A stretch of 64,000 nt of DNA from Acidobacteriota bacterium (GTDB taxonomy: Bacteria; Acidobacteriota; UBA6911). The notes under the pieces are model-generated. The model saw only the letters and a program-made list of their open reading frames with translations, was not told the origin of the DNA and searched no databases. The stretch is taken from assembly GCA_963664705.1 (NCBI GenBank), contig OY761556.1, positions 5,792,001 through 5,856,000 of the forward strand. The letters are read 5' to 3'. Both the position numbers and the translations under genes were made by a program. Positions 4,422 to 45,476 of this stretch are shown piece after piece (position 1 is the first letter of the stretch; each line of letters begins with the position of its first letter).

Positions 4422-5045
4422 ATGAGTCAGGATCCGGCTGAAACTCAGGGTCTTCTGGAACAAGCCAAGACAGGCGATCATTCTGCTTTTGAGGAACTTT
4501 TTAATCGGCACCGGGGGCGGCTGCAAAAGGCTATAGCCATTCGGATGGACCGACGCATTGCGGCGCGTGTGGATGCATCGGATATTCTACAGGAAACCTA
4601 CCTCGAGGCATTCAAGAGACTCCCAAGATATCTTCAACAGGAGGGGATGCCTTTTTACCTTTGGCTCCACTGGATTGCCCGGGAAAAGGTGCTGGGGTTG
4701 CACCGTCGACACCTGGGCGCGGATAAGCGCGCAGTTCAGCGCGAGGTGCCGCTAATGCCGGCGGACAGTTCCGTGGAATTCGTGAGCGGCATGATCGGCC
4801 GCGGACCATCGCCAAGTCAGGAGTTGGCTAAAGCCGAGCTCGCGGAACAACTGAGCAAGGCATTGGGACAACTCGATGATGATGAACGCGACCTGATCCT
4901 CTGGCGGCATTTCGAACAACTAAGTGCGCGCGACACGGCACAGCTTCTCCAGATATCCGAAGCCGCTGCCGCCAAGCGATACATTCGGGCTGTCGAGAGG
5001 CTACGCACGCTTTTGATCGGACTTGGAGTCTCCGGCCCTCGGTAG
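4422..5045 (+). CDS. ECF sigma-70 factor (Planctomycete-type, kinase-associated)
   Basis: Region 2 RVDASDILQETYLEA...FYLWL and region 4 LILWRHFEQLSARDTAQLLQISEAAAAKRYIRA. Lies directly upstream of a Ser/Thr kinase. Confidence 0.9.
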   Translation: MSQDPAETQGLLEQAKTGDHSAFEELFNRHRGRLQKAIAIRMDRRIAARVDASDILQETYLEAFKRLPRYLQQEGMPFYLWLHWIAREKVLGLHRRHLGADKRAVQREVPLMPADSSVEFVSGMIGRGPSPSQELAKAELAEQLSKALGQLDDDERDLILWRHFEQLSARDTAQLLQISEAAAAKRYIRAVERLRTLLIGLGVSGPR

Positions 5046-5181
5046 CTTTAGATTCATTTTTACTGCGTATGGAAGTTGAAAGCCTTTGAATCTCGAAGGA
5101 TCAAGGAGTAACTAGAGGCGAACGCTCTACTTCTACTCTTTCATTCCCCTAGGGTTCATTACGGAAAGGCGGGATGGCGGT

Positions 5182-8100
5182 ATGAATGAAGACTCCTTGC
5201 TTGGGCAATTAGTTGATGAATTCACAAGTAGAGTCCGGGAAGGGAAGCCGCCGGACGTTGAGGAATATGTCAATCGCTATCCCCAATTGGCCGGCCGCAT
5301 ACGGGAGCTGTTCCCAACGTTGATGCTTCTTGAGGGTATAGGCGTTACCCGCTGTGGCACTGCAACCCAAGCTATGGCGTCTCCGCTCTCTGAAAACTCG
5401 GTTTTTGGCAGCTACCATATAAAGCGGGAGATTGGCCGGGGAGGTATGGGGATCGTCTATGAAGCGGTCCATGCGCTTCTTGAAAAGAAAGTTGCTTTGA
5501 AGGTTCTGCCGGTCGGGACTCTCGCGGGCGCGGATCAACTTGAGCGTTTTTTCCGCGAAGCAAGGATGGCTGCCGGGTTGCACCATACAAATATCGTATC
5601 GGTGTTCGATGTGGGACAGGTTGCCGGAACACCCTATTATGCAATGCAGTACATCGAAGGCAGCAGCCTCGATCAGATTTTGCACATAATGCAATCGGCT
5701 TCAGGGCAGGACGCTGTAGATCCATCCGCACGCATTCAAGCCGGGTTGCCAGGCAGCGCCGAAGATTATTTCAGCTGGGTTTCAGGAATAGGAATGCAGG
5801 CCGCAGAAGGTTTGGCATATGCGCATGAGCGCAAAATCATCCACCGCGACATCAAACCCTCAAATCTATTGCTCGACAATCAAGGGGTGCTCTGGATCGC
5901 CGACTTCGGACTTGCCAGGAAGATCGAAGACCCGGCAATGACACAGAGCGGCGTAATGCTGGGGACTCCTCGCTACATGAGCCCCGAACAGGCCGAATCC
6001 ACCAGGCGCACCGTCGACCAACGCAGCGACATTTATAGTCTAGGAGCAACCCTCTATGAGCTTCTGACCTGCCGACCGGTATTTGAAGGAAAGACTCCGC
6101 AGGAAGTGTTGTCGCAAATCGTCACTCGCGAACCGGTTGCGCCGAGGCGGCTGAACCCGGATATCCCCGCTGATTTAGCGATCATTGTTATGAAAGCCAT
6201 GGCCAAGCGTCCGGACGATCGATACCAATCGGCTCGTGATTTGGCAGATGATCTCGAGCACTGGCGGAAAATGGAGCCGATCAACGCCCGGCCGATCGGA
6301 CCCTTCGGACGCACAATCCGCTGGTGCCGTCGCAATCCACGGGTGTCGGCGATAACGGCTGCTGCCATTGCTGTCATTGTTCTTCTCACCGGCATTTATA
6401 TTGCAGGCATGACAAAGAAAAACCGGGAGATTCAAGCGGCTCTCTCCCGCGCCGAACTGGGCACAGCCGCGGTACAGGCAGCGCTCCGGGATGACTCCCA
6501 AGCGTACATTAGACGAGCTACCGAGATTGCCAGACTCGACCAGGTAATGCATGGATCCGAAAATATCGAATTATTGCCGCAGGCCGTCAACGATTTATTA
6601 ATCATTCAGTTCTCTCAAAAAAAGGAATCACCTGAAATTAGACAGGTTTTGGCCGAATCGGAAAAGCGGGCGCTTGAGATGGCAAGACGCGCTGTGGACG
6701 TGCATGATGCCAGGTTCGTGGAATCGATCGGTCTTCTGGGTGAGTACTTCGAAGGCAAAAATGATTTACATCAGGCAGAGTGGCTATACCGCCAAGCGCT
6801 CGCGCTCGCAAGGCCGCTCCCAGAAAATCGGGGAGTCATCGAGAGATTAACCAATAAGATGAAATCGTTGTCGGAGAAACGGGTGGAGCTTTTGCAGAAA
6901 GAGGCTGAATCTGCCCTAAATTCTGGAGAGATTGCAAAGGCTGGAACCATATATCGCGAGGCACTCAAAATCCGTCGCGAGATCTCGGGTGGAGAGGATA
7001 TCCGAGATGTGATACTGGAACGGAATCTCGGTTCGGCTCTTGTGGAGTCAGGTCAACTCGAAGAAGGCGAGAAGGTTCTACGCAACAACTATCGATTATG
7101 CCTGACCAAGCTGGGCAAAGATAATCCCTCGACTCAAATGGTCGTGCGGAGCCTGATCTCGCTCTATGCCACCTGGAAAAAACAGCCTGAGAAGATTGCC
7201 GAATATTGCGCTGCCCTGCCTCATCCTGAAATAGTCAGCATAAAGGAATTGGGTGCGCAATCCTTTACTGAATCCGGAGAGGGACCATTCAGTGCTGCGT
7301 GGAATGGAAAGCAGGTCTGGGCTCTTGGGAATACGGCCGGACCGGGGACGACATCCAGCAGTTGGCTATGGAATGATGCCGGCCAAAAAGGAGATAAGCT
7401 AGGACCCTGGCGCCAGCGCAAGGACGAGCATGGACGGAGCCTATCACTGTTGCCTCTCACGGCAGACGAGGATGAATTCAACCGTGCCCGCGCCGATACT
7501 CGCTGCCGCGAAAACTGCCAGGAGTACTGGAACATAACGCCTGGTCCGATAATTCCTCTTCCTGGAAATAAGGGCGCACTGCTTTTTTACGGCAAAAACT
7601 TTATTCGTCCAGGCGATATCTTCAAGAATAGATCCACCGTGGGGACCTCAATTGCGATTTGGAAGGATCCCACTGCTCCGGCCGCCCGCAAGGATCTCAG
7701 ACCTGGGGCACCTGAGCCAACGCTTTTGTTTCAGCAGCCGGAGCCTTCAATCGGCATCCAGGCGTTTGCCTGGGCAAACTACCTGTATGCCTACGGCCGG
7801 ACTCCTGATCAGGGCGATCAGCTGATCGTCGCTCGCGCTCCCCTGGACGAAGCTCTTCAGCGAGGCGCCTGGCGTTTCTATTCCGGATACGGCCGATGGT
7901 CGGAGGCATGGCAGGAGGCAGTGCCCGTAATGAAGGGTTATCGTGGATCAATAGACTGGAACTGGTATTTAGGAAAATTGGTCCGGGTGTCGAACCATTT
8001 CCCATCTGATAACATGCTTTCCATCAGTACTTCAGATCGGCCCGAAGGACCTTGGTCCCAGTCTCAGGATATTCCATTAGGCCATAGACCAGACTCAAGG

Positions 8101-8226
8101 ATCAATTATCCATTGGCACATTCTGAATTGTCAGAAGAACGCGGACGAGTGCAGTATGTGACATATCAGCTCGAAACCGGCCTTTTCAAAACCGAAACCC
8201 GCTTTGTCGAGATCGTTTTCAAGTGA
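5182..8226 (+). CDS. Membrane Ser/Thr protein kinase with TPR-like region and C-terminal DUF4185-like beta-propeller
   Basis: Hanks motifs IGRGGMGIVY, VALKVL, HRDIKPSN, DFGLA, GTPRYMSPEQ. TM segment VSAITAAAIAVIVLLTGIYIAGM. TPR-like helices. C-terminal WALGNT...YLYAYG...VARAP...WRFY...PEGPWS...YPLAH resembles DUF4185. Confidence 0.85.
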   Translation: MNEDSLLGQLVDEFTSRVREGKPPDVEEYVNRYPQLAGRIRELFPTLMLLEGIGVTRCGTATQAMASPLSENSVFGSYHIKREIGRGGMGIVYEAVHALLEKKVALKVLPVGTLAGADQLERFFREARMAAGLHHTNIVSVFDVGQVAGTPYYAMQYIEGSSLDQILHIMQSASGQDAVDPSARIQAGLPGSAEDYFSWVSGIGMQAAEGLAYAHERKIIHRDIKPSNLLLDNQGVLWIADFGLARKIEDPAMTQSGVMLGTPRYMSPEQAESTRRTVDQRSDIYSLGATLYELLTCRPVFEGKTPQEVLSQIVTREPVAPRRLNPDIPADLAIIVMKAMAKRPDDRYQSARDLADDLEHWRKMEPINARPIGPFGRTIRWCRRNPRVSAITAAAIAVIVLLTGIYIAGMTKKNREIQAALSRAELGTAAVQAALRDDSQAYIRRATEIARLDQVMHGSENIELLPQAVNDLLIIQFSQKKESPEIRQVLAESEKRALEMARRAVDVHDARFVESIGLLGEYFEGKNDLHQAEWLYRQALALARPLPENRGVIERLTNKMKSLSEKRVELLQKEAESALNSGEIAKAGTIYREALKIRREISGGEDIRDVILERNLGSALVESGQLEEGEKVLRNNYRLCLTKLGKDNPSTQMVVRSLISLYATWKKQPEKIAEYCAALPHPEIVSIKELGAQSFTESGEGPFSAAWNGKQVWALGNTAGPGTTSSSWLWNDAGQKGDKLGPWRQRKDEHGRSLSLLPLTADEDEFNRARADTRCRENCQEYWNITPGPIIPLPGNKGALLFYGKNFIRPGDIFKNRSTVGTSIAIWKDPTAPAARKDLRPGAPEPTLLFQQPEPSIGIQAFAWANYLYAYGRTPDQGDQLIVARAPLDEALQRGAWRFYSGYGRWSEAWQEAVPVMKGYRGSIDWNWYLGKLVRVSNHFPSDNMLSISTSDRPEGPWSQSQDIPLGHRPDSRINYPLAHSELSEERGRVQYVTYQLETGLFKTETRFVEIVFK

Positions 8227-8389
8227 ATTTTTATATTCCTCAGTTCATCTTTGCAAAAAGAGCTGGAATTCAAGTTTGCCGGACAATGTCCAATTTACGC
8301 CGGGACTGCAGTTACGTGGGCAGGTACGCCAAAGCCCAAGGATTTACGATTACACATGATGGGCGGTCCGCGGTTCTCGATATGTCCGA

Positions 8390-8576
8390 GAGACATCAGA
8401 TCGAATTTCGAGCCGAGGCCTTCAACGTCACAAATAGCTTGCGCCTGGGCAATCCGGATACAAACTTGAGCAGTGGGACCTTCGGCAAGATTACCTCAAG
8501 TGCAAATCCTCAGGGCCTTCAGACTGGTAACAATGGCGGCAGGGTCATGCAGTTTGCTTTGAAGTATATTTTTTAG
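8390..8576 (+). pseudogene. Remnant of the C-terminus of an Acidobacteria-type (Oar-like) TonB-dependent receptor
   Basis: ERHQIEFRAEAFNVTNSLRLGNPDTNLSSGTFGKITSS...GRVMQFALKYIF* is the typical end of these ~1000-aa receptors. Only about 60 codons remain. Confidence 0.75.
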
Positions 8577-8587
8577 GGGAAAACTTC

Positions 8588-8686
8588 AGCTTGAAAAAAC
8601 GTCACTAATTTCGCGGATGGTAACGAATGGCTTCCAGACCAGCCCCGCAACATTTGTGTCAATTCGTGGAATTAGTGGCGTTTTTC
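8588..8686. repeat. Palindromic REP/MITE-like element, copy 1
   Basis: Inverted ends AAAAACGTCACTAATT ... AATTAGTGGCGTTTTT. The core ACGAATGGCTTCC..CCCCGCAACATT is shared with the copy at 59589-59686. Confidence 0.8.
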
Positions 8687-9610
8687 GCAGCCGGGTTTTC
8701 GCAGTGGTTGGAGTTTGTTCGCCGTTTCCTTCAACAAATCCCTTAGCCAAATATGCCCTGGGTCCTGGTCCTGATAACGATGCCACTGAAGGCACTGGGT
8801 AACTTTTGGAATGTCAAAAGGAGGGGGAATTAGCCTCAGAGGCAGGTGTTGTGCGCAAAGCCGGGCTATTCGGCTCACAACCGTTGTTATTCTGTTGGTT
8901 CCCACAACCAGCCGGCACGCAGATTCGAAATCCTGTGTAATGACTTCTATTTTTCTTGTCTCTCCGTAATGTGTTGCATACCACTCTTCAAAAATTGCCT
9001 GAGCCGTCCCGAAATGAACCGCGATGTGGCCCATGTTGACGAACTGGCTTGAGGAAATTCTGTTTCCAACTATCGGGTTGTCGCGCCACACCACACAGGT
9101 GTGGGTATCTTCGAAGAGCGGTTCCTTCGGATGCGCCCTCAAGGCATGAATGGATGGACGGACAAAGAAATCGATGCCGCCCTTCTCCAGTTTCTGTTCG
9201 ATGTGCTCATCAAGCCGCACAAGTTCAAATCTGATTCCGGGCGCCTTCCGCGCAGCTTCCTGCATGGCCTGAGGCATCAAAACAGCGGTCACATAGTCGG
9301 ATACGGCAAGGCAGAATTTCCGGTCGGAAGCAGCCGGATCGAATGCCGCTTTCGAAGCGACGGTGTGCTGGATCTGCATCAGGCAACTTCTTACCGGCTG
9401 CACAAGGCTTTCCGCCAGCGGCGTCAGGACCATTCTGCGCCCCGCGGGAGCCAACAATTCATTTCCGAAGTACTTTCGAAGGCGCGAGAGGATTATGCTG
9501 GTCGCCGGCTGACTTAAATGGAGCCGCTCGCCGGCGCGCGTGACACTCTTTTCCGTCAACAAGGCATCCAGTGCTACAAGCAACCCGATATCGAAATTGT
9601 CCAGATCCAT
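8672..9610 (-). CDS. LysR-family regulator, NodD/FdeR-like
   Basis: HTH LLVALDALLTEKSVTRAGERLHLSQPATS and NodD-like LRKYFGNELL...FDPAASDRKF..SDY; C-terminal LQWH...DPGHIWLR. Divergent from the PhlG operon. Confidence 0.9.
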   Translation of the reverse strand: MDLDNFDIGLLVALDALLTEKSVTRAGERLHLSQPATSIILSRLRKYFGNELLAPAGRRMVLTPLAESLVQPVRSCLMQIQHTVASKAAFDPAASDRKFCLAVSDYVTAVLMPQAMQEAARKAPGIRFELVRLDEHIEQKLEKGGIDFFVRPSIHALRAHPKEPLFEDTHTCVVWRDNPIVGNRISSSQFVNMGHIAVHFGTAQAIFEEWYATHYGETRKIEVITQDFESACRLVVGTNRITTVVSRIARLCAQHLPLRLIPPPFDIPKVTQCLQWHRYQDQDPGHIWLRDLLKETANKLQPLRKPGCEKRH

Positions 9611-9619
9611 AAGGCCTCA

Positions 9620-9680
9620 GGTATTTAAGGTTTTAATTACAATACATATGAAATATCTATTCCACAAATGGAAAAAATTC
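9620..9680. promoter_or_regulatory. AT-rich divergent promoter region with candidate LysR box
   Basis: Very AT-rich spacer between lysR and the hydrolase gene, containing the inverted repeat TTCCA-CAAA-TGGAA (9661-9674). Confidence 0.4.
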
Positions 9681-9765
9681 ATGTACATTCGCATTGTGGG
9701 CAATTCCAGTTTCAGCCAGGAAGAATGGAATACTGCCCGTCAATCAGCAAATCGGGAGTTATCCA

Positions 9766-10596
9766 ATGGCATCTTCAGAATTACCTCCGCTCAGTCCAGA
9801 AGAACAGCGAAGATCCTACGCCAAATACTATAAAAGGCCGGTTTCGCCGGATCCCGCGCATCTGGCTTTGATGGACATGCCCTGCGACCCCTCAAAAGCC
9901 GTATATCCGGAGCAGATGAATGACCTTCTCAATCCCGGCGATCTGTCGGTGGAGATTGGGTGGTGCAATCTGCCCAACGGCGCGGGCTTTATCGCCAACA
10001 GGAACTTCTACAAAAATGTGACGGCAGAGATGATCGACTGGTGGTTCGCCTGGCATCCGCTTGACGGCTTGCGGTACCGCATTTGGTATCCGCCGCAACA
10101 CGCGGGAATTGATCTGAAGCCCGAAGGCCGGGCGCGAATTCTGGATCCAGGCATCCCCGTTTCTGAGAAGAATTGGGGGGTAACCCATTTTGTTACCGAA
10201 GACTGCGATTGTGGAATGGAAAACATCGAAATCACATTTCTGTCGCCTCGAGATTTCGGATTTGATATGACGCGGTGGCAGGAACCGTACGTTTCCACTT
10301 TCGCAGGCGGCTTCGGCTGGTCCACACCGGCTGGGCATACGGAGCATCCCATAAAGGCACCTTCTTTAATGTGTCATATTTTTCGAAATATCCCGGGCGG
10401 TCTCGAACACCGAACGCGCTTCTGGATCGGTTATCGGATGTCCAGCGGCAAGCCTGAACTGGTCCTGCCTCCGGGCATCGCAGTTCCGGCAATAGCGGTT
10501 CAGGGGTTGGCAAGGCACAATGTACGGGAATTCAGTAATCTTGGCGTGCTGCTGCCGGAGATCCACGCGGAATACGGCGGGCAGCTGATCGGGTAA
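9766..10596 (+). CDS. phlG: DAPG hydrolase/phloretin hydrolase family (PhlG-like) Zn-dependent C-C hydrolase
   Basis: VTAEMIDWWFAWH, RYRIWYPPQH, THFVTED, RTRFWIG, LARHNVREFSNLGVLLPEIH match PhlG family motifs including the H/E/H/E metal ligands. Start at ATG 9766 after a GGGAG RBS. Confidence 0.85.
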   Translation: MASSELPPLSPEEQRRSYAKYYKRPVSPDPAHLALMDMPCDPSKAVYPEQMNDLLNPGDLSVEIGWCNLPNGAGFIANRNFYKNVTAEMIDWWFAWHPLDGLRYRIWYPPQHAGIDLKPEGRARILDPGIPVSEKNWGVTHFVTEDCDCGMENIEITFLSPRDFGFDMTRWQEPYVSTFAGGFGWSTPAGHTEHPIKAPSLMCHIFRNIPGGLEHRTRFWIGYRMSSGKPELVLPPGIAVPAIAVQGLARHNVREFSNLGVLLPEIHAEYGGQLIG

Positions 10597-10630
10597 GCAT
10601 AAATACGTTCGAATCAGTTTTGGAGGGGGC

Positions 10631-10852
10631 ATGAGTGCCACTATTGAGATCAATCTGGATGAATGCACTGGCTGCAAAAATTGTGTTGAGGCTTGCTTTG
10701 TAGATGTGATGCGATGGGACGATGACGAAGAAAAGCCGGTTGTCGCATATGAACCGGATTGCGTCTGGTGTTTTACTTGCGAAATCAACTGCCCCGCTCA
10801 ATGCATCAACGTCGTACCTCAAATGCCGGGACAACTCGTAAATCCGTACTGA
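10631..10852 (+). CDS. 2x[4Fe-4S] ferredoxin (AprB-like small subunit)
   Basis: CTGCKNCVEAC and CVWCFTCEINCP motifs; GGAGG RBS. Confidence 0.92.
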   Translation: MSATIEINLDECTGCKNCVEACFVDVMRWDDDEEKPVVAYEPDCVWCFTCEINCPAQCINVVPQMPGQLVNPY

Positions 10853-10881
10853 GCGTCGTCCGCAAACAAAGGGAGTCATAC

Positions 10882-13128
10882 ATGGTAGAGAAAGCCAAGA
10901 ACTCAACAGCATACGATACAGACGTTCTTATCATCGGCGGCGGCTTCGGAGGCCTTTCGGCAGCGATCCGGATTAAAGAACTGTCCCCGGAATCCAGTGT
11001 GCTGCTCGTCGATAAACAGACAATTGGCTGGGGAGGAAAAGCGAACAAAGGGGCCGGCGTTTTATGGGTCCTTGCCCCCGGAGATGACATCGATGCCTTT
11101 GCGGATTTCCACGTAAAGAACATAGGGATGTACCTGAACGACCAGGATCTGCTGTATGCCATGGCCCGGGAGTCATACGGAGCGGCGCAGAAGCTCGCGG
11201 ATTGGGGCGTTAAGGTGATGAAGACTCCGAATGGAGATCTTGATGTCAGCCGGCTTCCTTTCGGATGGTCCCTGGCGGCCGCCGACTTGGATATGATGCA
11301 GCCGCTTAGGGCAAAGGCGGTGAAACTCGGAGTCAAGCTGTTGGACAAGACTCATGTGGTCGATTTGCTGAAACAGGAAGGACGCGTAACCGGCGCAGTC
11401 GGCTTCAATCTCCTGGATGGGGGATTCGCGGTCTTCAACGCAAAGGCCACGATATTGGCCAACGGAGATTGCGATTTCGGCGTTATGCGAATGTGGGCTA
11501 ATGCCACCGGAGACGGCATTGCAGCCGCCTTTAATGCCGGAGCGGAGATGCGGAATGCCGAATTCGGCAACTTTTACGATGTCACCAACAAAGGCACAGG
11601 CATTCCGATCGTTTTCGGTTTTAACTCTCTCTGGAACGCGCAGGGGGAGAATATAAGCGCCAAATACATCCATGGACCGCAGCCGGATATCCCGATTTCC
11701 ATCATTCTCGGTATGGAGAAAGAGGTCATGGAGGGAAGAGGACCTATCTATTTTGACCCGGCTGAGTTTGCGAAAAGCATGGGTGGCGGCGGCGGGGGAA
11801 TATTTCAATGGGACCGGCCTCATACCAAAGCGCTTTTTGCCTGTGATGCAAAGAAGGCACAGCAGTATGGCCCGCCACCGGCAGAGAAAATAGAAGTTTC
11901 TCTTGGATTCACAGGCGAGTTTTCCGCAATCAGAGTAGACAGCGAAATGCAAACAACCCTCCCGGGTCTGTGGGCAATCGGAGATACCAGCTATGCGGGA
12001 TCTGCATGGGCCGGCGCTGCAGAGGCGCCGCCGGGCAGATTGAGAGGCTCCGGCCTGATGAACGCTTTGATATCCGCTCTGATGTCTGCCCGGTCCGTGG
12101 TTGAGCACGCAAAAGAGGCCTCCCCTACCATTGCGGATGACAACCAGGTCGCCGCTCTAAGGGAGAAAATTTTTGCGCCTCTGAACCGTGACGGCGGATA
12201 CGCGGCTTCGGAAGCCATACGAAGCATTCAGGAAGTAGTTGTACCGGTGAAATACAGCATGCGCAGGAACAAGGAAAGACTGGAAGAAGCCTTGTCCAAG
12301 GTGGCAGCGGTCAAGGAGAGGCTGCCCGAATTATCCGCCAAGGATCCGCACGGTCTCGTCCGCTGTCATGAGGCTTCCTGCATTGCACTGTGTGCCGAAA
12401 TCGGCTTTAAGTCAGCGCTGGCGCGCACTGAAAGCAGGGGTTGGCATTACAGAGAGGATTATCCCCAGCAGGACGACAAAAACTGGCTCAAGTGGGTCAT
12501 TGTAAAAAAAGTGCAGGACAGCATGGTCGTTACCACCGAGCCCATTCCCAGCGAGCTCTATAAACTAAAGCCAGGACAGGTTACCGCTGTGCCTGACGCG
12601 GTTGTCGAACACGATGAGCTTATCGGGGTGACCCCCGAAATGATCGATTGGTGGTGGGTCAATATGGAAAAGGGATACCCATTGTGGGAACCAACCGATC
12701 ACAAATCCTTTGTTTGGGAAGTGCCGCCGCCGGTTGGAGGATATCTGGGAGCAATCCAGATCGCAGAGGAAAAAATGGGGCCAATGCCGCCGATGAAAAT
12801 TCGCATCCGGTGGGACGACCCCGCCACCTGCTCCATCCCTTGTATCTACGAGCATGCGATCGTTGCAGCTGGGGTTAGTCCCGATGGGAAGGTGGGCGCT
12901 ATGATTCTCCATGAGTGGGAAAAGAGTCCCCGGGGAACCAGGATGCGCTCCACGATGCGTTTCCCGGGTCCCGTTCCACCCGGCTTCGCCGAGATCTGGA
13001 AAGCTCACGACAGGGCGGAAGTATCGACCTTCCCCGGATTCCTGCCCGATCTCTACAGACTATGGCAGTCTGTGAAGGATCCGGCAATCAACAGGCAATG
13101 CTCATTGAAGGTGAAGAAAACTTCGTAG
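10882..13128 (+). CDS. SdhA/FrdA/AprA-type FAD oxidoreductase fused to a C-terminal PhlG-like hydrolase domain
   Basis: FAD motif DVLIIGGGFGGLSAA, GLWAIGD and RTESRGWHYREDYP. Then, in frame from ~12580, GVTPEMIDWWW...YPLWEPTDH...EEKMG...AHDRAE...FLPDLY. Start ATG 10882 after GGGAG. Confidence 0.85.
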   Translation: MVEKAKNSTAYDTDVLIIGGGFGGLSAAIRIKELSPESSVLLVDKQTIGWGGKANKGAGVLWVLAPGDDIDAFADFHVKNIGMYLNDQDLLYAMARESYGAAQKLADWGVKVMKTPNGDLDVSRLPFGWSLAAADLDMMQPLRAKAVKLGVKLLDKTHVVDLLKQEGRVTGAVGFNLLDGGFAVFNAKATILANGDCDFGVMRMWANATGDGIAAAFNAGAEMRNAEFGNFYDVTNKGTGIPIVFGFNSLWNAQGENISAKYIHGPQPDIPISIILGMEKEVMEGRGPIYFDPAEFAKSMGGGGGGIFQWDRPHTKALFACDAKKAQQYGPPPAEKIEVSLGFTGEFSAIRVDSEMQTTLPGLWAIGDTSYAGSAWAGAAEAPPGRLRGSGLMNALISALMSARSVVEHAKEASPTIADDNQVAALREKIFAPLNRDGGYAASEAIRSIQEVVVPVKYSMRRNKERLEEALSKVAAVKERLPELSAKDPHGLVRCHEASCIALCAEIGFKSALARTESRGWHYREDYPQQDDKNWLKWVIVKKVQDSMVVTTEPIPSELYKLKPGQVTAVPDAVVEHDELIGVTPEMIDWWWVNMEKGYPLWEPTDHKSFVWEVPPPVGGYLGAIQIAEEKMGPMPPMKIRIRWDDPATCSIPCIYEHAIVAAGVSPDGKVGAMILHEWEKSPRGTRMRSTMRFPGPVPPGFAEIWKAHDRAEVSTFPGFLPDLYRLWQSVKDPAINRQCSLKVKKTS

Positions 13129-29766: not shown

Positions 29767-30351
29767 ATGCCGAAGCAATCGTCACAGGACCTGACGCGTC
29801 TTTTGCTGGCCTGGAGCGAAGGAGAACAGGCGGCGCTGGAGAAACTGGCTCCAGTAGTACACCAGGAACTCCGGCGACTGGCGCATGCCTATATGCGCGG
29901 AGAGCGCAAAGATCATACGCTGCAAACCACTGCATTGATCAACGAGGCCTATCTGCGGCTACTGGACTGTAGAAAAATGGGATGGCAGAACCGGGCGCAC
30001 TTTTTTGCAATCTCCGCCCAGATGATGCGGCGCATTCTGGTTGATTATGCCCGCTCGCGGCGCTATCTGAAGCGCGGAGGGGGAGCGGAGAAGATCTCAC
30101 TGGACGAAAATCGCCTTACGGCGGACACGCGTGATCCCGATCTGATTGAACTGGACGAAGCGCTCAAAGCTCTCGGCAGGGTGGATGAGCGGAAAGGGAA
30201 GGTTGTGGAACTGCGGTACTTTGGCGGGCTGAGCGTGGAGGAGACGGCCGAGGTGCTCGGAGTTTCGCCGGACACGGTGATGCGTGACTGGAAGTTGGCC
30301 AAAGCCTGGCTGGCTCGTCAAATGAGCAACACTTCGCAGGTGAACCAATAA
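29767..30351 (+). CDS. ECF sigma factor, ECF43/TIGR02999-like (kinase-associated)
   Basis: HTLQTTALINEAYLRL, WQNRAHFFAISAQMMRRILVDYAR, VVELRYFGGLSVEETA..LGVS..TVMRDW. The stop codon overlaps the kinase start (TAATG). Confidence 0.93.
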   Translation: MPKQSSQDLTRLLLAWSEGEQAALEKLAPVVHQELRRLAHAYMRGERKDHTLQTTALINEAYLRLLDCRKMGWQNRAHFFAISAQMMRRILVDYARSRRYLKRGGGAEKISLDENRLTADTRDPDLIELDEALKALGRVDERKGKVVELRYFGGLSVEETAEVLGVSPDTVMRDWKLAKAWLARQMSNTSQVNQ

Positions 30352-38963: not shown

Positions 38964-39752
38964 TTACAGCGCTTTGCTCCCGCCGAGAATTCTCTCGATC
39001 GCATCGCGGCAGAGCGTAAGCACTCGTGCCAATTCAGGTTCTTTTTTCGTAAACCTGACTGTTGGGGTCGGAATGGTGATTGCGGCAATCTCCCCGTCAA
39101 AGCCGATGATCGCAGTTCCGATCGCCGAAATTCCAATCGAATGCTCCTCGCGATCGAATGCAAGCCCGGTTTCCCTAATTGTGAGGAGTTCCTCTTCAAG
39201 TTTTTTCCAGGAGCGGATGGAGTTTTCGGTGAAAGCGGTCAAATGCATGCGCTTTTTAACGCGGCTCAATGCCGCATCATCAAGCGCAGCCAACATCGCT
39301 TTGCCATTTGCCGTGCAGTGCAACGGGAATGAAACTCCGATAGCGGAGACGGCTCGAAGGCGATGGGATCCGGGTATCTGATCCACGAACACCGCCTTAT
39401 CCGCATCCATGACTGCGAGGTCAACGGTCTCACCTGTTTTCTCGGAAAGCTCCCGAAGGTAGGGGGCGGCGGTTTCGGCGAGCGGGAAACGTATGGAATG
39501 GGCAATCCTGACCAAGGCCGGACCGAGTCGCAGTCGGCCGCCGGGAGACGCTGAAACTACGAAATTCTCGGAATCAAGAGCCGAAATAATTCGCTGCACA
39601 GTTGATTTGGGCAAACCGACTTTTCCGGCAAGCTGGCCGAGACTCATACCGTTGCTTCCCTCGAGCGCCCGCAAGATCTCGGCCGCGCGAGCTATGACTT
39701 GGACTCCGTTTCGGTCCCTGGCCTTGGCTTTTGTTTTCAAGCGCTCAACCAT
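38964..39752 (-). CDS. IclR-family transcriptional regulator
   Basis: HTH VIARAAEILRAL...GLPKSTVQRI; GETVDL, PLHCTANGKAMLA, GLAFDREE. Confidence 0.93.
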   Translation of the reverse strand: MVERLKTKAKARDRNGVQVIARAAEILRALEGSNGMSLGQLAGKVGLPKSTVQRIISALDSENFVVSASPGGRLRLGPALVRIAHSIRFPLAETAAPYLRELSEKTGETVDLAVMDADKAVFVDQIPGSHRLRAVSAIGVSFPLHCTANGKAMLAALDDAALSRVKKRMHLTAFTENSIRSWKKLEEELLTIRETGLAFDREEHSIGISAIGTAIIGFDGEIAAITIPTPTVRFTKKEPELARVLTLCRDAIERILGGSKAL

Positions 39753-40668
39753 CCAGCGGTTCTCCCTTTTGCAATGCTTTCCTCAGGTACTGCGTCAGCC
39801 GATCCCGGACACCTTGTGCTGATTCCGGCGTCCACTCATAAAATCCCTTGCATGATTTCATCCCAAGGCGCTGCTCCCCAATGTAATGCGCCAACAACGG
39901 GCTGGGCTCGGGTGACGCTTCAAGATGCCGAAGGATTACATTGTGAATCGCGAGAGTCAAGTCCAGTCCCACAAGGTCAGCGTTCTCCAGCGGACCCAAT
40001 ATCGGCAGCCGAATGCCGAAGCTGTTTTTGACGACCAGATCTACTGTTTCGGCATCGCAAATACCAGCCGCTACAATTGAAATTGCTTCTCTCCACAAAG
40101 CGTGCTGTAAACGATTGCCGACAAAGCCCGGCACATCGCGTTTGACATGGACCGCCAGTTTTCCCACCCGCTTTAGCAGGTGGATGCACTTCTCGATATA
40201 AACTGGATCAGTTTGAGGCGCTTGGATGACCTCAACCAATGGGATCAAATAGGGAGGATTCCACCAGTGCGTGCCGAGGATGCGCCGCCCGGCGTCCTCG
40301 GCCTTGGCGGCGATCTCCCCAATTGGAATGACCGACGTATTGCTGGCCAGGATACAGCCGGGCTTTGTAACCTTCGATATGTCCGCGAAAATGCCCTGCT
40401 TCAATTCAAGATTCTCGGGCGCAGCCTCGAACACGATATCGGCGTTTTCAACCGCAGCTTTGAGGGCTCGGTGCAGGGTTATTCTCTCAACACTCGATGG
40501 ATCAAAGCCAAGGCTCTGCAGGTTTGCACTCACCCGCTCGGGAACTCGTGCCAGCACTTCCGGGAAAGGATCGTGGATCGCGACATCGTGCCCCATTACT
40601 GCAAAAACCTGCGCTATGCCGTGTCCCATCAACCCGGCGCCGATCACTGCAATTTTTTCCATTTTCAA
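39745..40668 (-). CDS. 3-hydroxyacyl-CoA dehydrogenase family protein (candidate 3-hydroxy-5-oxohexanoate dehydrogenase)
   Basis: IAVIGAGLMGHGIA, EAAPE, ASNTS, GTHWWNPP, PGFVGNRLQ. The specific role is inferred from context. Confidence 0.88.
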   Translation of the reverse strand: MKMEKIAVIGAGLMGHGIAQVFAVMGHDVAIHDPFPEVLARVPERVSANLQSLGFDPSSVERITLHRALKAAVENADIVFEAAPENLELKQGIFADISKVTKPGCILASNTSVIPIGEIAAKAEDAGRRILGTHWWNPPYLIPLVEVIQAPQTDPVYIEKCIHLLKRVGKLAVHVKRDVPGFVGNRLQHALWREAISIVAAGICDAETVDLVVKNSFGIRLPILGPLENADLVGLDLTLAIHNVILRHLEASPEPSPLLAHYIGEQRLGMKSCKGFYEWTPESAQGVRDRLTQYLRKALQKGEPLDG

Positions 40669-40680
40669 GCGCCTCCTGTC

Positions 40681-41481
40681 CTATACCACTCCATATTTAT
40701 AAATTCTGGGCGGAACGGGATTGATATCCTTCTCATCAATCAACGCTGCCATCCGGACAATGGATCCATCTCCCATATACCATCGCAATGGAAGTCCCAT
40801 AATCGTAACGCGCTTCCCGACGACCATCGCGATATCGCCGCCTACGTTTTCCCAACCCATGATCCCATTTCTAAGGAGAAGATTGTGACAGGGCTCCCAT
40901 TCGGGGAAATCCGCCAGCACGTCGCGTCCTGTCATCTGCTTATATTCATCACTGAGCGACGGCATGATAGGGCCGGGCCCATGGGGACCAATTGCGGTGT
41001 GCAGAGGGTGATCCAAAGCCTGCTGGTCCACGCCTACCGCTTTTACTCCTTTGGCGACAAACCACTCGCCTGCTTCGCGTCCGAGACCGGGCGAGTAGCA
41101 GAAGTACTCCTTATTGTCTCCCCAATATTTATTCCAGCCCGTGTGGACGATCACGATATCGCCCTTTTCGATCTTAGGCGTTGCCTTTTCCAGGTCGGCG
41201 GCTGTGATCAATTCCCATCTTTTCTTTGGGATGTCCACGACAACGCCCGTCCCATAGTAAAGATCCAGCGGTAATTCATGCGTATACGGGAGTCCTTCGA
41301 CTACATGTCCCGGCGAGTCGGCATGGGTTGAGCAATGCATCACGGTTGTGATCTTCTGTGAAAGGACGCCCGATTTGGCGTGGTAATGCATGCGCTCAAC
41401 TTTGATGTCTTCGAAGTATGGCCAGAGGGGAACGCCGGGGCCAAAGGGGTGACTGAGGTCCACTAATTTCTGATTGCTCAT
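40681..41481 (-). CDS. Cyclase/kynurenine formamidase family metal hydrolase (candidate dihydrophloroglucinol cyclohydrolase)
   Basis: LVDLSHP, MHCSTHADSPGH (HxxTHxD), GDIVIVHTGW, VGVDQQALDHP, ENVGG. Start at 41481. Confidence 0.88.
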   Translation of the reverse strand: MSNQKLVDLSHPFGPGVPLWPYFEDIKVERMHYHAKSGVLSQKITTVMHCSTHADSPGHVVEGLPYTHELPLDLYYGTGVVVDIPKKRWELITAADLEKATPKIEKGDIVIVHTGWNKYWGDNKEYFCYSPGLGREAGEWFVAKGVKAVGVDQQALDHPLHTAIGPHGPGPIMPSLSDEYKQMTGRDVLADFPEWEPCHNLLLRNGIMGWENVGGDIAMVVGKRVTIMGLPLRWYMGDGSIVRMAALIDEKDINPVPPRIYKYGVV

Positions 41482-41509
41482 TTCAATGTCTCCAATTTGG
41501 GTTGAGTTT

Positions 41510-42301
41510 TTATCCGGCGACTGTACCGCCGTCCACATAAAGGACTTGCCCGGTTACGAAATCGGATGCAGGCGACGCAAGATAAACGGCTGCACCCACA
41601 GAATCCTGAGTTAGGGCGGCCCTGCCCATGGGAATCCTGGACATGAAAACTTTATACAGTTGCTCGTTCTCCAATACCTCCTGTGTGAGAGGCGTCCAGA
41701 AGATGCAGGGAGCAATCGAATTCACATTGATGTTGTACTTTGCCCATTCGGTGGCCAGCTGTTTTGTGAGGAGATTCACTGCGCCTTTGCTTGTTCCATA
41801 AGCGGCATATCCTCCTGGATGCCCGGCAAATGCGCGCACAGAAGAGATTGTGATGATTTTACCCCTTTTCTTTTCTTTGAAAATTTTTGCAGCATGCTTG
41901 CAGCAAAGAAATGTTCCCCGGACATTGATATCCATGACCTGTTGCCAGTCATCAATGGGAAATTCCTCGGCGGGGAAACGCTTCGCGATTCCTGCCGCCG
42001 TGACCAGGATGTCAACAGTTCCGAACACCTTCAGAGTTTCCTGCACCATGGCCTCGACGTCTTTTTCAACGGCAACGTCGCAGCTCAGCGCCAGGGCTTT
42101 TCGGCCGGCCGCCTCAATGTCCTTTACAACGGGTTCCAGTGTCTTCAACGTGCGTCCGGTTATCACAACATTGGCGCCATATAGGGCTAGGCTTTGTGCA
42201 ATCGCTTGTCCCAGGGCGCCCGCACCTCCTGTCAGGATTGCCACCTTGCCTTCGAGACTAAACATGTTTCGGACATAATTCAAATCAACGCGAGATTCCA
42301 T
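41510..42301 (-). CDS. Short-chain dehydrogenase/reductase (candidate phloroglucinol reductase)
   Basis: TGGAGALG Rossmann motif, catalytic YGTSK, NVNSIAP, VDGG. Confidence 0.88.
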   Translation of the reverse strand: MESRVDLNYVRNMFSLEGKVAILTGGAGALGQAIAQSLALYGANVVITGRTLKTLEPVVKDIEAAGRKALALSCDVAVEKDVEAMVQETLKVFGTVDILVTAAGIAKRFPAEEFPIDDWQQVMDINVRGTFLCCKHAAKIFKEKKRGKIITISSVRAFAGHPGGYAAYGTSKGAVNLLTKQLATEWAKYNINVNSIAPCIFWTPLTQEVLENEQLYKVFMSRIPMGRAALTQDSVGAAVYLASPASDFVTGQVLYVDGGTVAG

Positions 42302-42333
42302 TGATCCACCGCCTTTCGACGTACTAATCCAGA

Positions 42334-42672
42334 TTATTTATAGGTGATGATCACAAGCATGCTTGCCGGCTTATTCGTGTTGTTGATGATCGCCCTGGCT
42401 TCGTTGGGCCCAACATACAGAGAGTCTGATGCCCTCAGCACGTATGTTTGTTTGTCCGGTGAGGTGACGGTGACCTCTCCCTCGAGCACAAAATAAAGCT
42501 TTTCCGCCGGTGTGGCGTCCATCTCGGCACCCCCATTCGGCAGAAAATGAGAGAGACCCATCCAGAACTGCTGCGTTCCTGTTTCCTCTTTTCCATGCAG
42601 TCTCAACGCGGTCATGTTGAAATGCTTGGGCGGGGCATAGGGTTTTGCATCCTGCAATTCTACCTTTTTCAT
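42334..42672 (-). CDS. Cupin domain protein
   Basis: 112 aa from ATG 42672 with GGAGG RBS; SHFLPNGGAE...EKLYFVLEGE...DSLYVGPNEAR. Confidence 0.85.
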   Translation of the reverse strand: MKKVELQDAKPYAPPKHFNMTALRLHGKEETGTQQFWMGLSHFLPNGGAEMDATPAEKLYFVLEGEVTVTSPDKQTYVLRASDSLYVGPNEARAIINNTNKPASMLVIITYK

Positions 42673-42698
42673 TCCGGCCTCCTTTATTGTTGCTGAGT

Positions 42699-42736
42699 GT
42701 ATCACGATGTGGTATGACAATACCATAATGCGGTAA
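42699..42736. promoter_or_regulatory. Tandem palindromic boxes, candidate IclR operator in the divergent promoter
   Basis: TATCACGATGTGGTA and TACCATAATGCGGTA, which together form TGGTAT-GACA-ATACCA. Confidence 0.55.
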
Positions 42737-42763
42737 AACCCAGTACCCTCAAAAGGAGACCAT

Positions 42764-43147
42764 ATGGTGAAATGGGCAAGAGTTCTGCTGTTTGTCTCTG
42801 TTGCGCTTTTTAGTCTGACTCCGGCCTTTGCCGCCGATGTTTCAGGTAAATGGACTACTGCGATACAGACTGGAATCGGGGTCATGAACTATACCTTCGA
42901 ATTTAAGGCCGATGGGGAGAAGCTCACAGGAAAGGCCGTGATGTCCATGGAAGGCGGGTCCAGTGAATCCGCCATAACGGAAGGATTCGTGAAGGGTGAT
43001 CAAATATCCTTTGTCGAAGCGCTGAAGGTTCAAGGCCAGGAACTCAGGAGTGAATACAAGGGCAAAATATCGGGTGATGAGATCCGCTGTTCCCGGCAGG
43101 TGGGCAGCTATGGAACGGAAGAGTTCGTAATAAAGCGCGCCAAATAG
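42764..43147 (+). CDS. Small secreted beta-strand protein
   Basis: Signal peptide ending AFA-A; DVSGKW...FKADGEKLTG...GDQISF...YKGKISGDEI; AGGAG RBS. Confidence 0.8.
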   Translation: MVKWARVLLFVSVALFSLTPAFAADVSGKWTTAIQTGIGVMNYTFEFKADGEKLTGKAVMSMEGGSSESAITEGFVKGDQISFVEALKVQGQELRSEYKGKISGDEIRCSRQVGSYGTEEFVIKRAK

Positions 43148-43220
43148 TTTTGCGGCCGCGAAGTCTGTCCTGGAAGAGGTCTTGGCAAACAAGCAGATTG
43201 CTTCAATGAGAGGAGCCGTT

Positions 43221-44156
43221 ATGGCCGACAAGCTGATCATCACAACAGCACTGACGGGCGCAATCACTATCCCAACCCAGACGCCTCACCTGCCCTTTAC
43301 GCCGGAGCACCTCATTGCAGACGCGATCGCATGTGGTCAAGCGGGCACTGCCGCAGTTCACGTGCATGCGCGCGATCCTGTAAACGGACGACCGCTTTCC
43401 GATCCCGACCTCTTTGGGCCGATCCTGAAAGGAATCAAAGCAGGCAGCAATGTTGTGGTAGGGACCACAACCGGAGGAGGTATGGGCATGTCACCTCAGG
43501 ACAGGCTGCGTGTGATTCCACGCTATCGTCCTGAGTTGGCATCGTTCAATCTGGGAAGCATCAATTTTTCTATTCATCCCGTGGCCAGGCGATACAAGGC
43601 CGAGGACTACAAATACGATTGGGAACAGTCGTATGCGGAAGGCACGAAGGATTTTATTTTTCGCAACACCTTCGGCGACATGGAGACCTACGCCAGTACG
43701 TTCGCGGAAAATAATGTGCGGCCCGAATTCGAGGCCTATGATGTGGGACACCTGTACAATTTGCGGTTCATGATGAAGAGCGGCATTGTGAAGCCTCCTT
43801 TTTGGATTCAGTTCGTTTTGGGAGTCCTGGGCGGTCTGGCCGCTACGATTGAAGATTTGATCGTGATGAAGCAAACGGCTGACCGGCTGTTCGGAGGCGA
43901 TAATTATCGATGGTCGGTCATCGGTGTTGGCTATCCCGCCGAGATCAATCTGGCGGCTATGGCAATTATGATGGGAGGACATGTGCGGGTAGGCCTCGAA
44001 GATAATATTTACATCGGCAAAGGCAAGCTCTGCACGAATGTCCAGCTTGTGGAAAAAATCGTGCGCCTGGCGCGAGAGTTTGACCGGGAAATCGCTACCC
44101 CTGATGACATGCGACAAATTCTGGGACTCAAGGGTACTGGAGCGGTTGGCTTTTAA
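43221..44156 (+). CDS. Beta-keto acid cleavage enzyme (DUF849/Kce family; candidate triacetate acetoacetate-lyase)
   Basis: KLIITTALTGA, HVHARD, TTGG, PELASFNLGS, PEFEAYDVGH, GGHVRVGLED. Confidence 0.92.
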   Translation: MADKLIITTALTGAITIPTQTPHLPFTPEHLIADAIACGQAGTAAVHVHARDPVNGRPLSDPDLFGPILKGIKAGSNVVVGTTTGGGMGMSPQDRLRVIPRYRPELASFNLGSINFSIHPVARRYKAEDYKYDWEQSYAEGTKDFIFRNTFGDMETYASTFAENNVRPEFEAYDVGHLYNLRFMMKSGIVKPPFWIQFVLGVLGGLAATIEDLIVMKQTADRLFGGDNYRWSVIGVGYPAEINLAAMAIMMGGHVRVGLEDNIYIGKGKLCTNVQLVEKIVRLAREFDREIATPDDMRQILGLKGTGAVGF

Positions 44157-44170
44157 AGAGGTACGACGGG

Positions 44171-44836
44171 ATGAGCAAATTCATAACTTGTACTGAAGCG
44201 GTTGAGATGATCCCCGATGGCGCCTCTCTCCTGATCGGAGGATTTATGGGGGTCGGATCGCCACACCGCGTAATCGCCGAAATGGTTCGCCAAGGACGGA
44301 AAGGGCTCACCATTATCGCCAACGATACCGGCACGCCGAATTTCGGGATTGGCCAATTGGTGCAAGCCCGGAGTATCCGCAAATTGATCGCATCTCATAT
44401 CGGGCTAAATCCCGAAACACAGAGGCAGGTAATCGCAGGAGAAATAGAAGCGGAGCTATGCCCGCAAGGTACGCTTGCGGAAAGGATTCGTGCTGGAGGC
44501 TTTGGGCTCGGCGGCGTTCTTACTCAGACAGGAATCGGAACCACCGTTGCCGAAGGGAAACCTGTTATTGACGTAGACGGGAAACAATATTTGCTCGAGA
44601 GACCTTTAACCGCTGATTTTGCACTGATCGCAGCGCATCGATCGGATTACCGAGGCAACCTGGAATATTCTATGACCGCGCGCAATTTCAACATGGTCAT
44701 GGCGACGGCCGGCCGGGTTGTCATTGCTGAACCTGAACACATCGTCCCGACCGGCGGCATACCTCCGGATGCGGTGGCGACTCCCTTCGTTTGCATTCAC
44801 CACATTATCGGGAGGGTTGGAACCAATGGACGATAA
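44171..44836 (+). CDS. atoD: 3-oxoacid (acetoacetate) CoA-transferase subunit A
   Basis: IGGFMGVGSP, IANDTG, SHIGLNP, PQGTLAERIRAGG, ARNFN. Confidence 0.88.
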   Translation: MSKFITCTEAVEMIPDGASLLIGGFMGVGSPHRVIAEMVRQGRKGLTIIANDTGTPNFGIGQLVQARSIRKLIASHIGLNPETQRQVIAGEIEAELCPQGTLAERIRAGGFGLGGVLTQTGIGTTVAEGKPVIDVDGKQYLLERPLTADFALIAAHRSDYRGNLEYSMTARNFNMVMATAGRVVIAEPEHIVPTGGIPPDAVATPFVCIHHIIGRVGTNGR

Positions 44837-45476
44837 GGTCCTGATTGCGAAGCGTGTCGCTCGCGAATTAAGGGACGGGAGCCTCGTTAATCTTGGTATC
44901 GGCTTGCCAACACTGGTTCCCAGGTATTTGCCGCCCGGGATCGAAGTCTATTTCCAATCCGAAAACGGGATAATCGGCATGGCGCCCGTGCCTGGTGTCG
45001 GAATGGAAGAACCCTCGCTTACTGATGCCGGTGGCGGTTTTGTCGGTGCCATTCCCGGAGCCGCAAGCATCGACAGTTGCCTCTCGTTCGGACTGATCCG
45101 AGGCGGCCACCTCGATTTAACTATTCTCGGTGGGCTTGAAGTGGATGAACAGGGACGGTTGGCGAACTGGACCGTGCCGGGCAAGATGTTGCCGGGAATG
45201 GGCGGCGCCATGGATCTTGTGACCGGAGCCAAGCGGGTTATTGTCGCAATGTCCCACACTGCAAGAGGCAAACCAAAAATATTGAAGAATTGCACGCTGC
45301 CTTTGACGTCGGTGCGGCGAGTCAGCCTGATCGTGACGGAAATGGCCGTGATCGAACCAACAGAGGACGGCTTGCTTCTTAAAGAGATAGCCCCGGGATT
45401 GAGCGTGGCTAAGGTCGTTGAATCGACAGAAGCGAATCTGATTGTTTCGAAACCTGTTCTCGAAATGGCGTTATAA
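44826..45476 (+). CDS. atoA: 3-oxoacid CoA-transferase subunit B
   Basis: VNLGIGLPT, catalytic QSENG, IRGGHLD, GMGGAMDL. Overlaps the subunit A stop. Confidence 0.88.
   Translation: MDDKVLIAKRVARELRDGSLVNLGIGLPTLVPRYLPPGIEVYFQSENGIIGMAPVPGVGMEEPSLTDAGGGFVGAIPGAASIDSCLSFGLIRGGHLDLTILGGLEVDEQGRLANWTVPGKMLPGMGGAMDLVTGAKRVIVAMSHTARGKPKILKNCTLPLTSVRRVSLIVTEMAVIEPTEDGLLLKEIAPGLSVAKVVESTEANLIVSKPVLEMAL

Follow-up and report, generated by a model that had tools for sequence, protein, structure and literature searches.

In the flavonoid degradation route of the gut bacteria Flavonifractor plautii and Eubacterium ramulus, which runs through flavone reductase (FLR), chalcone isomerase (CHI), EnoR/Fcr and Phy (accessible parts of PMC7862272, PMC11572103 and PMC9694015), a redox step is followed by the release of phloroglucinol by a PhlG-family hydrolase. 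We describe here a gene unit with the same two kinds of predicted activity, formed by a LysR regulator, a PhlG-family hydrolase, a ferredoxin and a flavoprotein that carries a fused second PhlG-like domain, in a stretch of 64,000 nucleotides of an Acidobacteriota genome (GCA_963664705.1, contig OY761556.1, positions 5,792,001 to 5,856,000; hereafter the window). While reduction in the gut bacteria relies on an NADH-dependent OYE protein or on FLR, an FMN-dependent enzyme, the flavoprotein here is AprA-like and ferredoxin linked, and no FLR, CHI or pyrogallol transhydroxylase was found in this genome. The hydrolases Phy (M. abscessus, 5xe5/5xey; E. ramulus) and PhlG (Pseudomonas fluorescens, 3hwp) share with both hydrolase domains of the window a Bet v1-like fold, an H/E/HxxxE site and conserved Tyr and His residues, although the long protein here falls far under the PhlG equivalog cutoff and the fused domain is short and joined to a redox enzyme. 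The flavoprotein has the three-domain fold of the APS/PAPS reductase AprAB (1jnr, 8a8o) and of fumarate reductase/succinate dehydrogenase, and a dicluster ferredoxin partner is present here too, but identity does not exceed 25%, the operon lacks membrane or iron-sulfur Sdh subunits, and its partners are C-C hydrolases. The regulator belongs to the LysR branch of NodD (nod box) and FdeR (fdeO, aerobic naringenin degradation), at about 40% identity and with the same divergent layout and a nod-box-like operator; it differs in the control of an anaerobic enzyme unit in an acidobacterium, with an identity under the orthologue level and an effector that is predicted. Finally, the four gene families of the PGR/DPGC/TfD/TAL pathway of Clostridium scatologenes (accessible parts of PMC10470551) appear at 39.7 to 45.5 kb of the window and beside many of the units in other genomes. 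This pathway is downstream of the unit and not part of it; in the window its short-chain dehydrogenase/reductase (SDR) is about 38% identical to 5g4k, which is not its best match, and its BKACE protein lacks the Trp of CsTAL.

The core of the unit, a PhlG-family hydrolase, a ferredoxin and an AprA-like flavoprotein (hereafter the triad), is found across at least seven phyla. No description of the hydrolase-flavoprotein pairing or of the fusion was found in the literature searched, in which subscription papers were largely out of reach, in agreement with the original prediction, made from the sequence alone, which knew of no described protein of this kind. That prediction had also taken the locus for a candidate new system; here the absence of the fusion from the literature stands, while the local novelty does not, the locus being one arrangement of a cross-phylum triad. 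The unit is real and likely represents a form of anaerobic flavonoid cleavage for which no description was found, its parts coming from known families, none of which passes as SdhA, AprA, EnoR or the PhlG equivalog.

Architecture of the unit

The in-frame fusion of a PhlG domain to an SdhA/AprA-type flavoprotein, as originally predicted, was borne out. Pfam detected the proposed architecture of PF00890 (residues 14 to 227), PF02910 (457 to 565) and PF18089 (577 to 690), the last with a score that is weak by sequence (26.1 bits against a cutoff of 22.7). A search with residues 560 to 748 retrieved 93 clusters of 411 to 1309 amino acids (aa), 89 of them 740 to 790 aa long, and the fusion was matched in 21 of 24 genomes of the same genus (E ≤ 1e-40), 19 times at nearly full length without an internal stop; none of 16 other genomes of the same class matched. 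Contigs from runs X1 and X2, either of which may be the source of this DNA, showed no differences across the region, and neither did a contig from a second study (X5) across positions 12550 to 12700, so that the junction, for which a check on the reads had been proposed, agrees between studies. Recurrent clusters, same-genus genomes and contig agreement rule out a junction artifact. The four open reading frames are intact, and all the motifs quoted in the prediction, for both PhlG domains and the end of the flavoprotein, are where expected. The nearest named records are Acidobacteriota metagenome-assembled genomes, and the ESM Atlas gave generically named clusters only.

The PhlG fold proposed for both hydrolase domains was supported by Pfam, PDB matches and Foldseek. 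The stand-alone long protein scored 230 bits with PF18089 and matched 5xe5 (E, 8e-30) and 3hwp (E, 3e-28), and its H112, E145, H251 and E255 align with the corresponding residues of both structures as putative zinc ligands (active-site residues were mapped by sequence alignment throughout); Y104 and H204 are also kept. He et al. are said to have identified the H/E/HxxxE residues as zinc ligands in PhlG in 2010. With the PhlG equivalog NF047887, the long protein reached 96 bits against a cutoff of 600, failing as a diacetylphloroglucinol hydrolase, and no phlACBD genes were found among the neighbors. Of the four residues to which Han et al. (2019) reportedly traced specificity, the long protein shares the His alone in the alignment. 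The fused domain, modeled alone with AlphaFold (predicted local distance difference test [pLDDT] of 94), gave phloretin hydrolase 5xe5 (E, 1e-8) and PhlG 3hwp as best Foldseek matches. Its putative zinc site consists of H607 (conserved in 88 of 89 rows), E630 (73/89), H709 and E713 (89/89 each), together with Y599 and H677. What did not hold for this domain is the N-terminal part of the long hydrolases, about 70 residues that serve dimerization: it is PhlG-like and of a short subtype of about 180 aa, with about 21% identity to the long protein beside it. Proteins made up of the short subtype alone occur as well (206 representatives at E ≤ 0.001). A division of labor in which the short domain replaces CHI and the long one acts as the hydrolase was not supported, since many carriers of the short type have no long PhlG in the genome, several have CHI, and many long-type carriers lack it. 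As separate observations, short PhlG-like domains also occur as tandem duplicates behind signal-peptide-like starts or behind an unrelated N-terminal domain (P0110, P0118, P0140, P0168, P0217, P0107), and two genomes of the genus have an extra stand-alone short gene of the Dehalococcoidia type (L028:7979-8638, L118:18781-19437), one of them 12 kb from a phloroglucinol cluster. Genomes G086, G094 and G082 have 7 to 12 PF18089 matches each, which suggests large families of polyphenol-specific C-C hydrolases.

AlphaFold modeled the whole fusion with a pLDDT of 94.4 and a predicted template modeling score (pTM) of 0.90, suggesting a tail domain docked in a fixed position on the flavoprotein. The top Foldseek matches of the fusion were PAPS reductase 8a8o, FrdA and AprA, and 8a8o was also the best PDB match of the flavoprotein part, which lies below every NCBIfam Sdh/Frd/Apr/NadB cutoff shown. 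It failed as AprA/PAPS reductase (149 against 557 bits and 98 against 642 bits), and neither sat nor dsr genes were found among the annotated recurrent neighbor clusters. It also failed as SdhA/FrdA: in the alignment GGKANKG, NFYD and TGEF stand in place of the His motifs, and the covalent-FAD and dicarboxylate histidines of FrdA are replaced. Residues K53, K56, W205, E346 and PP-G-x-x-R-GSG are kept across the subfamily. The NCBIfam scores, the lost histidines and this conserved set exclude an ordinary Sdh/Frd, NadB or AprA. No OYE barrel (PF00724) was matched in the fusion, which thus failed as an EnoR/Fcr-type reductase. The ferredoxin has two CxxCxxCxxxC motifs (C12/15/18/22 and C44/47/50/54) and is likely the small electron transfer partner of the flavoprotein, by analogy with AprB and AprA. 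In the same genome, nine more flavoproteins match the SdhA/AprA superfamily, and a ferredoxin adjoins at least three of them; a family of about 614 aa (e.g., L118:15901-17742) includes four or more paralogues at 53 to 71% identity; no PhlG gene was found beside either the nine or this family.

The assignment of the regulator to the NodD/FdeR branch was confirmed by its 39 to 44% identity to plasmid LysR proteins, including annotated NodD1 and NodD2, and by its operator, the flavonoid response being predicted. Its two best matches sit in clusters of hydrolase, VOC dioxygenase, Rieske and FAD oxidoreductase genes, presumably fde-like by gene content, as the records do not name fde. The operator element is kept in 17 of 17 aligned upstream regions, and it agrees, in the same place, with 15 to 19 of the last 25 bases of the published nod box (accessible part of PMC2575884). 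The window's own copy matches 15 of 25, a value reached by 26 of 300 shuffles and alone not significant; with a profile from 16 relatives, this site scored 46.5 against 10.4 for the next best in the genome and was the single site found. The scan for sigma-70 promoters and terminators gave no score above shuffles. FdeR senses naringenin, a flavonoid that already carries the ketone (accessible part of PMC12809279), and the NodD-like regulator likely switches the unit on when a flavonoid is present.

Table 1. Features of the unit and of the phloroglucinol-type cluster, with positions in the window
Feature	Position	Strand	Details
LysR regulator, NodD/FdeR branch	9610-8672	-	312 aa; PF00126 + PF03466
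Nod-box-like operator	9623..9669	+	47-base element between LysR and operon
Long PhlG/phloretin-hydrolase-family C-C hydrolase	9766-10596	+	276 aa; PF18089
Dicluster 2x[4Fe-4S] ferredoxin	10631-10852	+	73 aa; Fer4 families and cysteine pattern
Flavoprotein-PhlG fusion, whole open reading frame	10882-13128	+	748 aa
AprA/SdhA-superfamily flavoprotein part of fusion	10882..12576	+	Residues 1-565; PF00890 + PF02910
Fused short PhlG-like Bet v1-fold domain	12577..13128	+	Residues ~566-748; AlphaFold/Foldseek
Phloroglucinol-catabolism-type cluster	39745..45476		27 kb downstream of the unit, same window

Distribution and association with phloroglucinol catabolism

At the loci of the genus type, LysR, long PhlG, ferredoxin and fusion stay together while gene order and flanks differ: the long PhlG and a ferredoxin beside the flavoprotein were each found at 20 of 21 loci and the LysR at 15, and PF18089 occurs in 27 of 30 genomes of the genus. 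The flavoprotein has more than 1,000 relatives at E ≤ 1e-60, and those listed below about 65% identity are mostly unfused, of about 560 aa. A wider set of 78 flavoprotein loci came from Acidobacteriota, Chloroflexota, Desulfobacterota, Actinomycetota, Bacillota, Spirochaetota and archaea. A PhlG-family gene lies in the fetched flank of 66 of them (seven of the other 12 stop at a contig edge), and the ferredoxin is clustered with the flavoprotein at 62; long-type PhlG neighbors, which the query does not match, are also common. The carriers include Holophaga foetida, Sporobacter and Parasporobacterium, which are trihydroxybenzene degraders. In a quick tree of the flavoproteins, run without a one-clade test, the partners of short-type domains formed one clade (61 rows, support 99), with two unfused proteins (P0248 and P0250) nested within the fused ones, and the partners of long-type domains fell outside. 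A long-type PhlG is fused to the flavoprotein in Oscillospiraceae (L099, P0378, P0382). The fusion has thus arisen at least twice, with the short type here and the long type in Oscillospiraceae.

PF18089 was found in 46 of 49 distant carrier genomes and in none of 14 controls. FLR-like genes are present in 21 of the 49 carriers, in three cases in the same island, which weakens the idea of the flavoprotein as a stand-in for FLR; CHI is present in 15. In sulfate reducers, islands hold the triad with FLR (7d38; E, 2e-143), CHI, an OYE protein, pyrogallol transhydroxylase (4v4c) and PGR-pathway genes, and a spirochaete island holds both a long-type triad and a fusion. Such gene content points to polyphenol substrates and to a step that is parallel to, not identical with, the known ones. 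Three of these (L115:990-20000, L117:92-15550 and L116:1911-19114), found in sulfate reducers and in a spirochaete, are complete polyphenol degradation islands with several PhlG types. In L117 the large subunit of the transhydroxylase looks fragmented, as does one flavoprotein in L116. More distant paralogues of the flavoprotein, which share 37 to 43% identity with the Dehalococcoidia query and come from G137, G159 and another locus of G050, have no PhlG neighbor, indicating that PhlG linkage is a property of one subfamily. Separately, at three Dehalococcoidia loci (L111, L112, L113) two or three related flavoproteins follow one another in tandem, together with ferredoxins and solute-binding-like proteins; these loci lack PhlG genes and are a sister system.

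The proposed link of the unit to phloroglucinol release was supported by its association with phloroglucinol catabolism genes. The cluster in the window encodes a 3-hydroxyacyl-CoA dehydrogenase family protein, a cyclase, the SDR, a cupin, a small secreted protein, the BKACE protein and CoA-transferase A/B. The cyclase has the W20/Y22 signature of dihydrophloroglucinol (DPG) cyclohydrolase, which is given with the pathway gene families in the accessible parts of PMC10470551, and the best match of the BKACE protein is the 3,5-dioxohexanoate:acetyl-CoA acetone transferase (392 bits against a cutoff of 430). In loci L011 and L012, the phloroglucinol cluster directly adjoins LysR. DPGC-like cyclases were found in 46 of the 49 distant carriers (E ≤ 1e-30) and, at E ≤ 1e-40, in 10 of 12 Dehalococcoidia carriers compared with none of 150 evenly drawn members of the class. 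Two of these 150 encode flavoprotein paralogues of a more distant kind and lack both the cyclase and a PhlG neighbor. As related genomes are not independent, these carrier counts are tallies and not tests. All 10 genomes of the genus with a DPGC-like gene carry the unit.

Candidate reactions and substrates

The substrate is quite probably a plant polyphenol with a phloroglucinol ring. PhlG-type zinc sites require a ketone on this ring (accessible parts of PMC8003664, PMC11331486 and PMC11572103), and the simplest coupling is a reductive opening or reduction of the C ring followed by hydrolysis. The reading that we tentatively prefer, with somewhat less than even confidence, is a reductive opening or reduction of the C ring of a 4-oxo-flavonoid by the ferredoxin-fed flavoprotein and a subsequent release of phloroglucinol by the hydrolase domains. 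The ferredoxin would deliver electrons to non-covalently bound FAD, as in AprAB, and a hydride would go to C2, either directly or after transient opening to a chalcone or diketone, E346 possibly acting as proton donor. Zinc-bound water would then hydrolyze the resulting acyl-phloroglucinol in a retro-Claisen reaction, carried out by the docked short domain, the long hydrolase or both, and phloroglucinol would enter the PGR/DPGC/TfD/TAL route where the genome has it; in genomes without that route, the step would be an electron sink or give an aryl-alkanoate. Reduction is favored by the regulator type, the absent covalent-FAD histidine and the occurrence in fermenters; the absent histidine, the dicluster ferredoxin and the fermenter hosts would fit a low-potential reductase. 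Candidate 4-oxo substrates for the central-ring step would be flavanones, flavanonols and auronols. A 2024 review gives the step from hydroxyaurone/auronol to phloroglucinol without an enzyme (accessible part of PMC11572103) and CHI turns flavanonols into auronols (accessible part of PMC9694015), which makes auronols prime candidates. The reduction of chalcone to dihydrochalcone, proposed in the original prediction, is weakened: CHI and FLR were not found here and each was found in just 1 of 30 genomes of the genus, and in islands the triad stands alongside FLR, CHI and an OYE-type reductase, where a plain chalcone reductase would be redundant.

A published proteome of soil fed with condensed tannin (rows of Supplementary Data 3 of PMC8084988, accessible in part) counts in favor of the preferred reading. 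The authors' Holophaga PHY is scaffold_700_0002 (5 peptides), and the next gene, scaffold_700_0003, has as reciprocal best match UPI0002473F0A, the H. foetida flavoprotein of locus L087. In tannin replicate B this protein was detected by 7 peptides, on days 10, 14 and 20, while no control showed it and the authors' FCR had 1 peptide, and the accessible main text does not discuss it. The same source reports that quercetin arose in live soil only, “likely from (epi)catechin monomers,” in a scheme that names no enzyme. The flavoprotein could then be a dehydrogenase that oxidizes a benzylic carbon (C4 of catechin/epicatechin or of a ring-opened diarylpropanol) through a quinone methide to the ketone, ahead of PhlG hydrolysis, as this orthologue detected on a flavan-3-ol polymer, the quercetin of live soil and the coexistence of the triad with a full FLR/CHI/OYE route in islands would suggest. 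AprAB-type enzymes are also reversible. Yet we consider it unlikely, as the non-covalent FAD and the dicluster ferredoxin suggest a low potential, the triad is present in rumen fermenters, NodD/FdeR-type regulators answer to 4-oxo flavonoids, and FAD_binding_4 oxidases, better candidates for the oxidation, adjoin the triad in L076 and L094.

The detection of the orthologue on condensed tannin is also consistent with a reductive depolymerization of proanthocyanidins, in which a PhlG-like retro-Friedel-Crafts cut of the interflavan C4-C8 bond would be followed by trapping of the quinone methide by the flavoprotein hydride. Channeling of such a reactive intermediate would account for the repeated fusion and suit the confidently packed model (pTM as above), and tannase genes lie beside some loci. 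However, dimers would have to be imported and be accommodated in the pocket, the full conservation of the zinc-water site is as expected for acyl hydrolysis, and the regulator type indicates monomeric 4-oxo flavonoids, so that this is the most improbable of the schemes considered. As a side observation, scaffold_700_0001 (2 peptides), which adjoins PHY in the Holophaga proteome, is at the position matching that of a small protein that has no Pfam match and begins with what resembles a signal peptide (window 42764-43147, +; also L087:10575-10928). This protein recurs beside the triad or phloroglucinol genes, with 14 loci in the wider set, and is possibly a periplasmic binding or accessory protein.

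Two further schemes reassign the partners. In one, the PhlG cut comes first and splits chalcone or auronol into phloroglucinol and an acid, either unsaturated or a keto acid; this acid (coumarate, caffeate or arylpyruvate) would then serve as an electron sink, with the flavoprotein as its reductase. FAD_binding_2 proteins do reduce cinnamates, 18 of the 28 unit-bearing genomes of the genus lack a DPGC-like gene, and the enzyme-less hydroxyaurone step of the review (PMC11572103, in its accessible part) would be accommodated. It is nevertheless quite unlikely: the carboxylate-binding histidines of fumarate reductases are replaced here by Y232/D233 and E346, and no more than 34 of 59 distant members of the flavoprotein subfamily have R388. 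In the other, the pair would be the orphan ferredoxin-dependent resorcinol reductase with a 1,3-diketone hydrolase, dearomatization being followed by retro-Claisen opening. Such a reductase and a hydrolytic cleavage after it are known biochemically (accessible part of PMC10470551), the chemistry of PhlG is retro-Claisen, and triacetate-type BKACE genes are close by; against this, the triad co-occurs with the phloroglucinol-specific PGR/DPGC and with flavonoid genes and the regulator is NodD/FdeR-like, making it highly unlikely.

Several observations count against reductive C-ring cleavage of a 4-oxo-flavonoid coupled to hydrolysis, the reading that we prefer. The flavoprotein subfamily has no characterized enzyme, its nearest solved relative being the PAPS reductase at 25% identity. 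At five loci no PhlG gene lies nearby even though the flanks are ample (L047, L051, L072, L092 and L103), and the ranking of the 78 loci is biased toward those whose short PhlG gene also matches the query. Both FLR and an OYE-type reductase accompany the triad in L115, L117 and L065, joined by CHI in the first two, and flavanone reduction may already be covered there. The LysR is limited to loci of the genus type, other lineages having TetR, MarR or other LysR regulators, and the DPGC-like gene occurs in only 10 of 30 genomes of the genus, with evidence of the unit in 28. In the accessible proteome data, the feed was a flavan-3-ol polymer without a 4-ketone, and Holophaga proteins in general were seen in tannin replicate B only; since other Holophaga proteins have the same sample pattern, the detection of the flavoprotein indicates expression during tannin decay and not specific induction.

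Neighboring genes and biological meaning

Outside the unit, the window contains an aldehyde:ferredoxin oxidoreductase-family gene (15847-17865, +; 209 bits against an equivalog cutoff of 868), 2.7 kb away and not kept beside the unit in relatives, and two pairs of extracytoplasmic function (ECF)-sigma-like and Ser/Thr kinase genes (4422-8226 and 29767-33128; translations inspected). A short open reading frame (8223-8576, +) ending in MQFALKYIF resembles the C-terminal remnant of an acidobacterial TonB-dependent receptor and may mark a rearrangement that split the unit from the phloroglucinol cluster.

How flavonoids and tannins decay without oxygen matters for the carbon stored in peat and sediments, as well as for polyphenol metabolism in the rumen and gut. 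The known enzymes come from a few gut isolates, with gaps at auronol cleavage and flavan-3-ol entry, while the unit is found widely among uncultured anaerobes, including genomes without FLR or CHI; its flavoprotein is currently annotated just as succinate dehydrogenase or FAD-binding protein. Its fused version is predicted to join two activities in one polypeptide. A bolder and rather doubtful proposal is that it is one channeled enzyme for the missing step of polyphenol decay (auronol or flavan-3-ol entry, possibly interflavan cleavage) and would be the main way in which acidobacteria of wetlands and sediments, Dehalococcoidia and sulfate reducers release phloroglucinol, controlled here by flavonoids through the nod-box-like element. 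The existence of a cultured carrier, H. foetida DSM 6591, makes this gap directly testable. If true, AprA-type chemistry would be extended from sulfur compounds to polyphenols.

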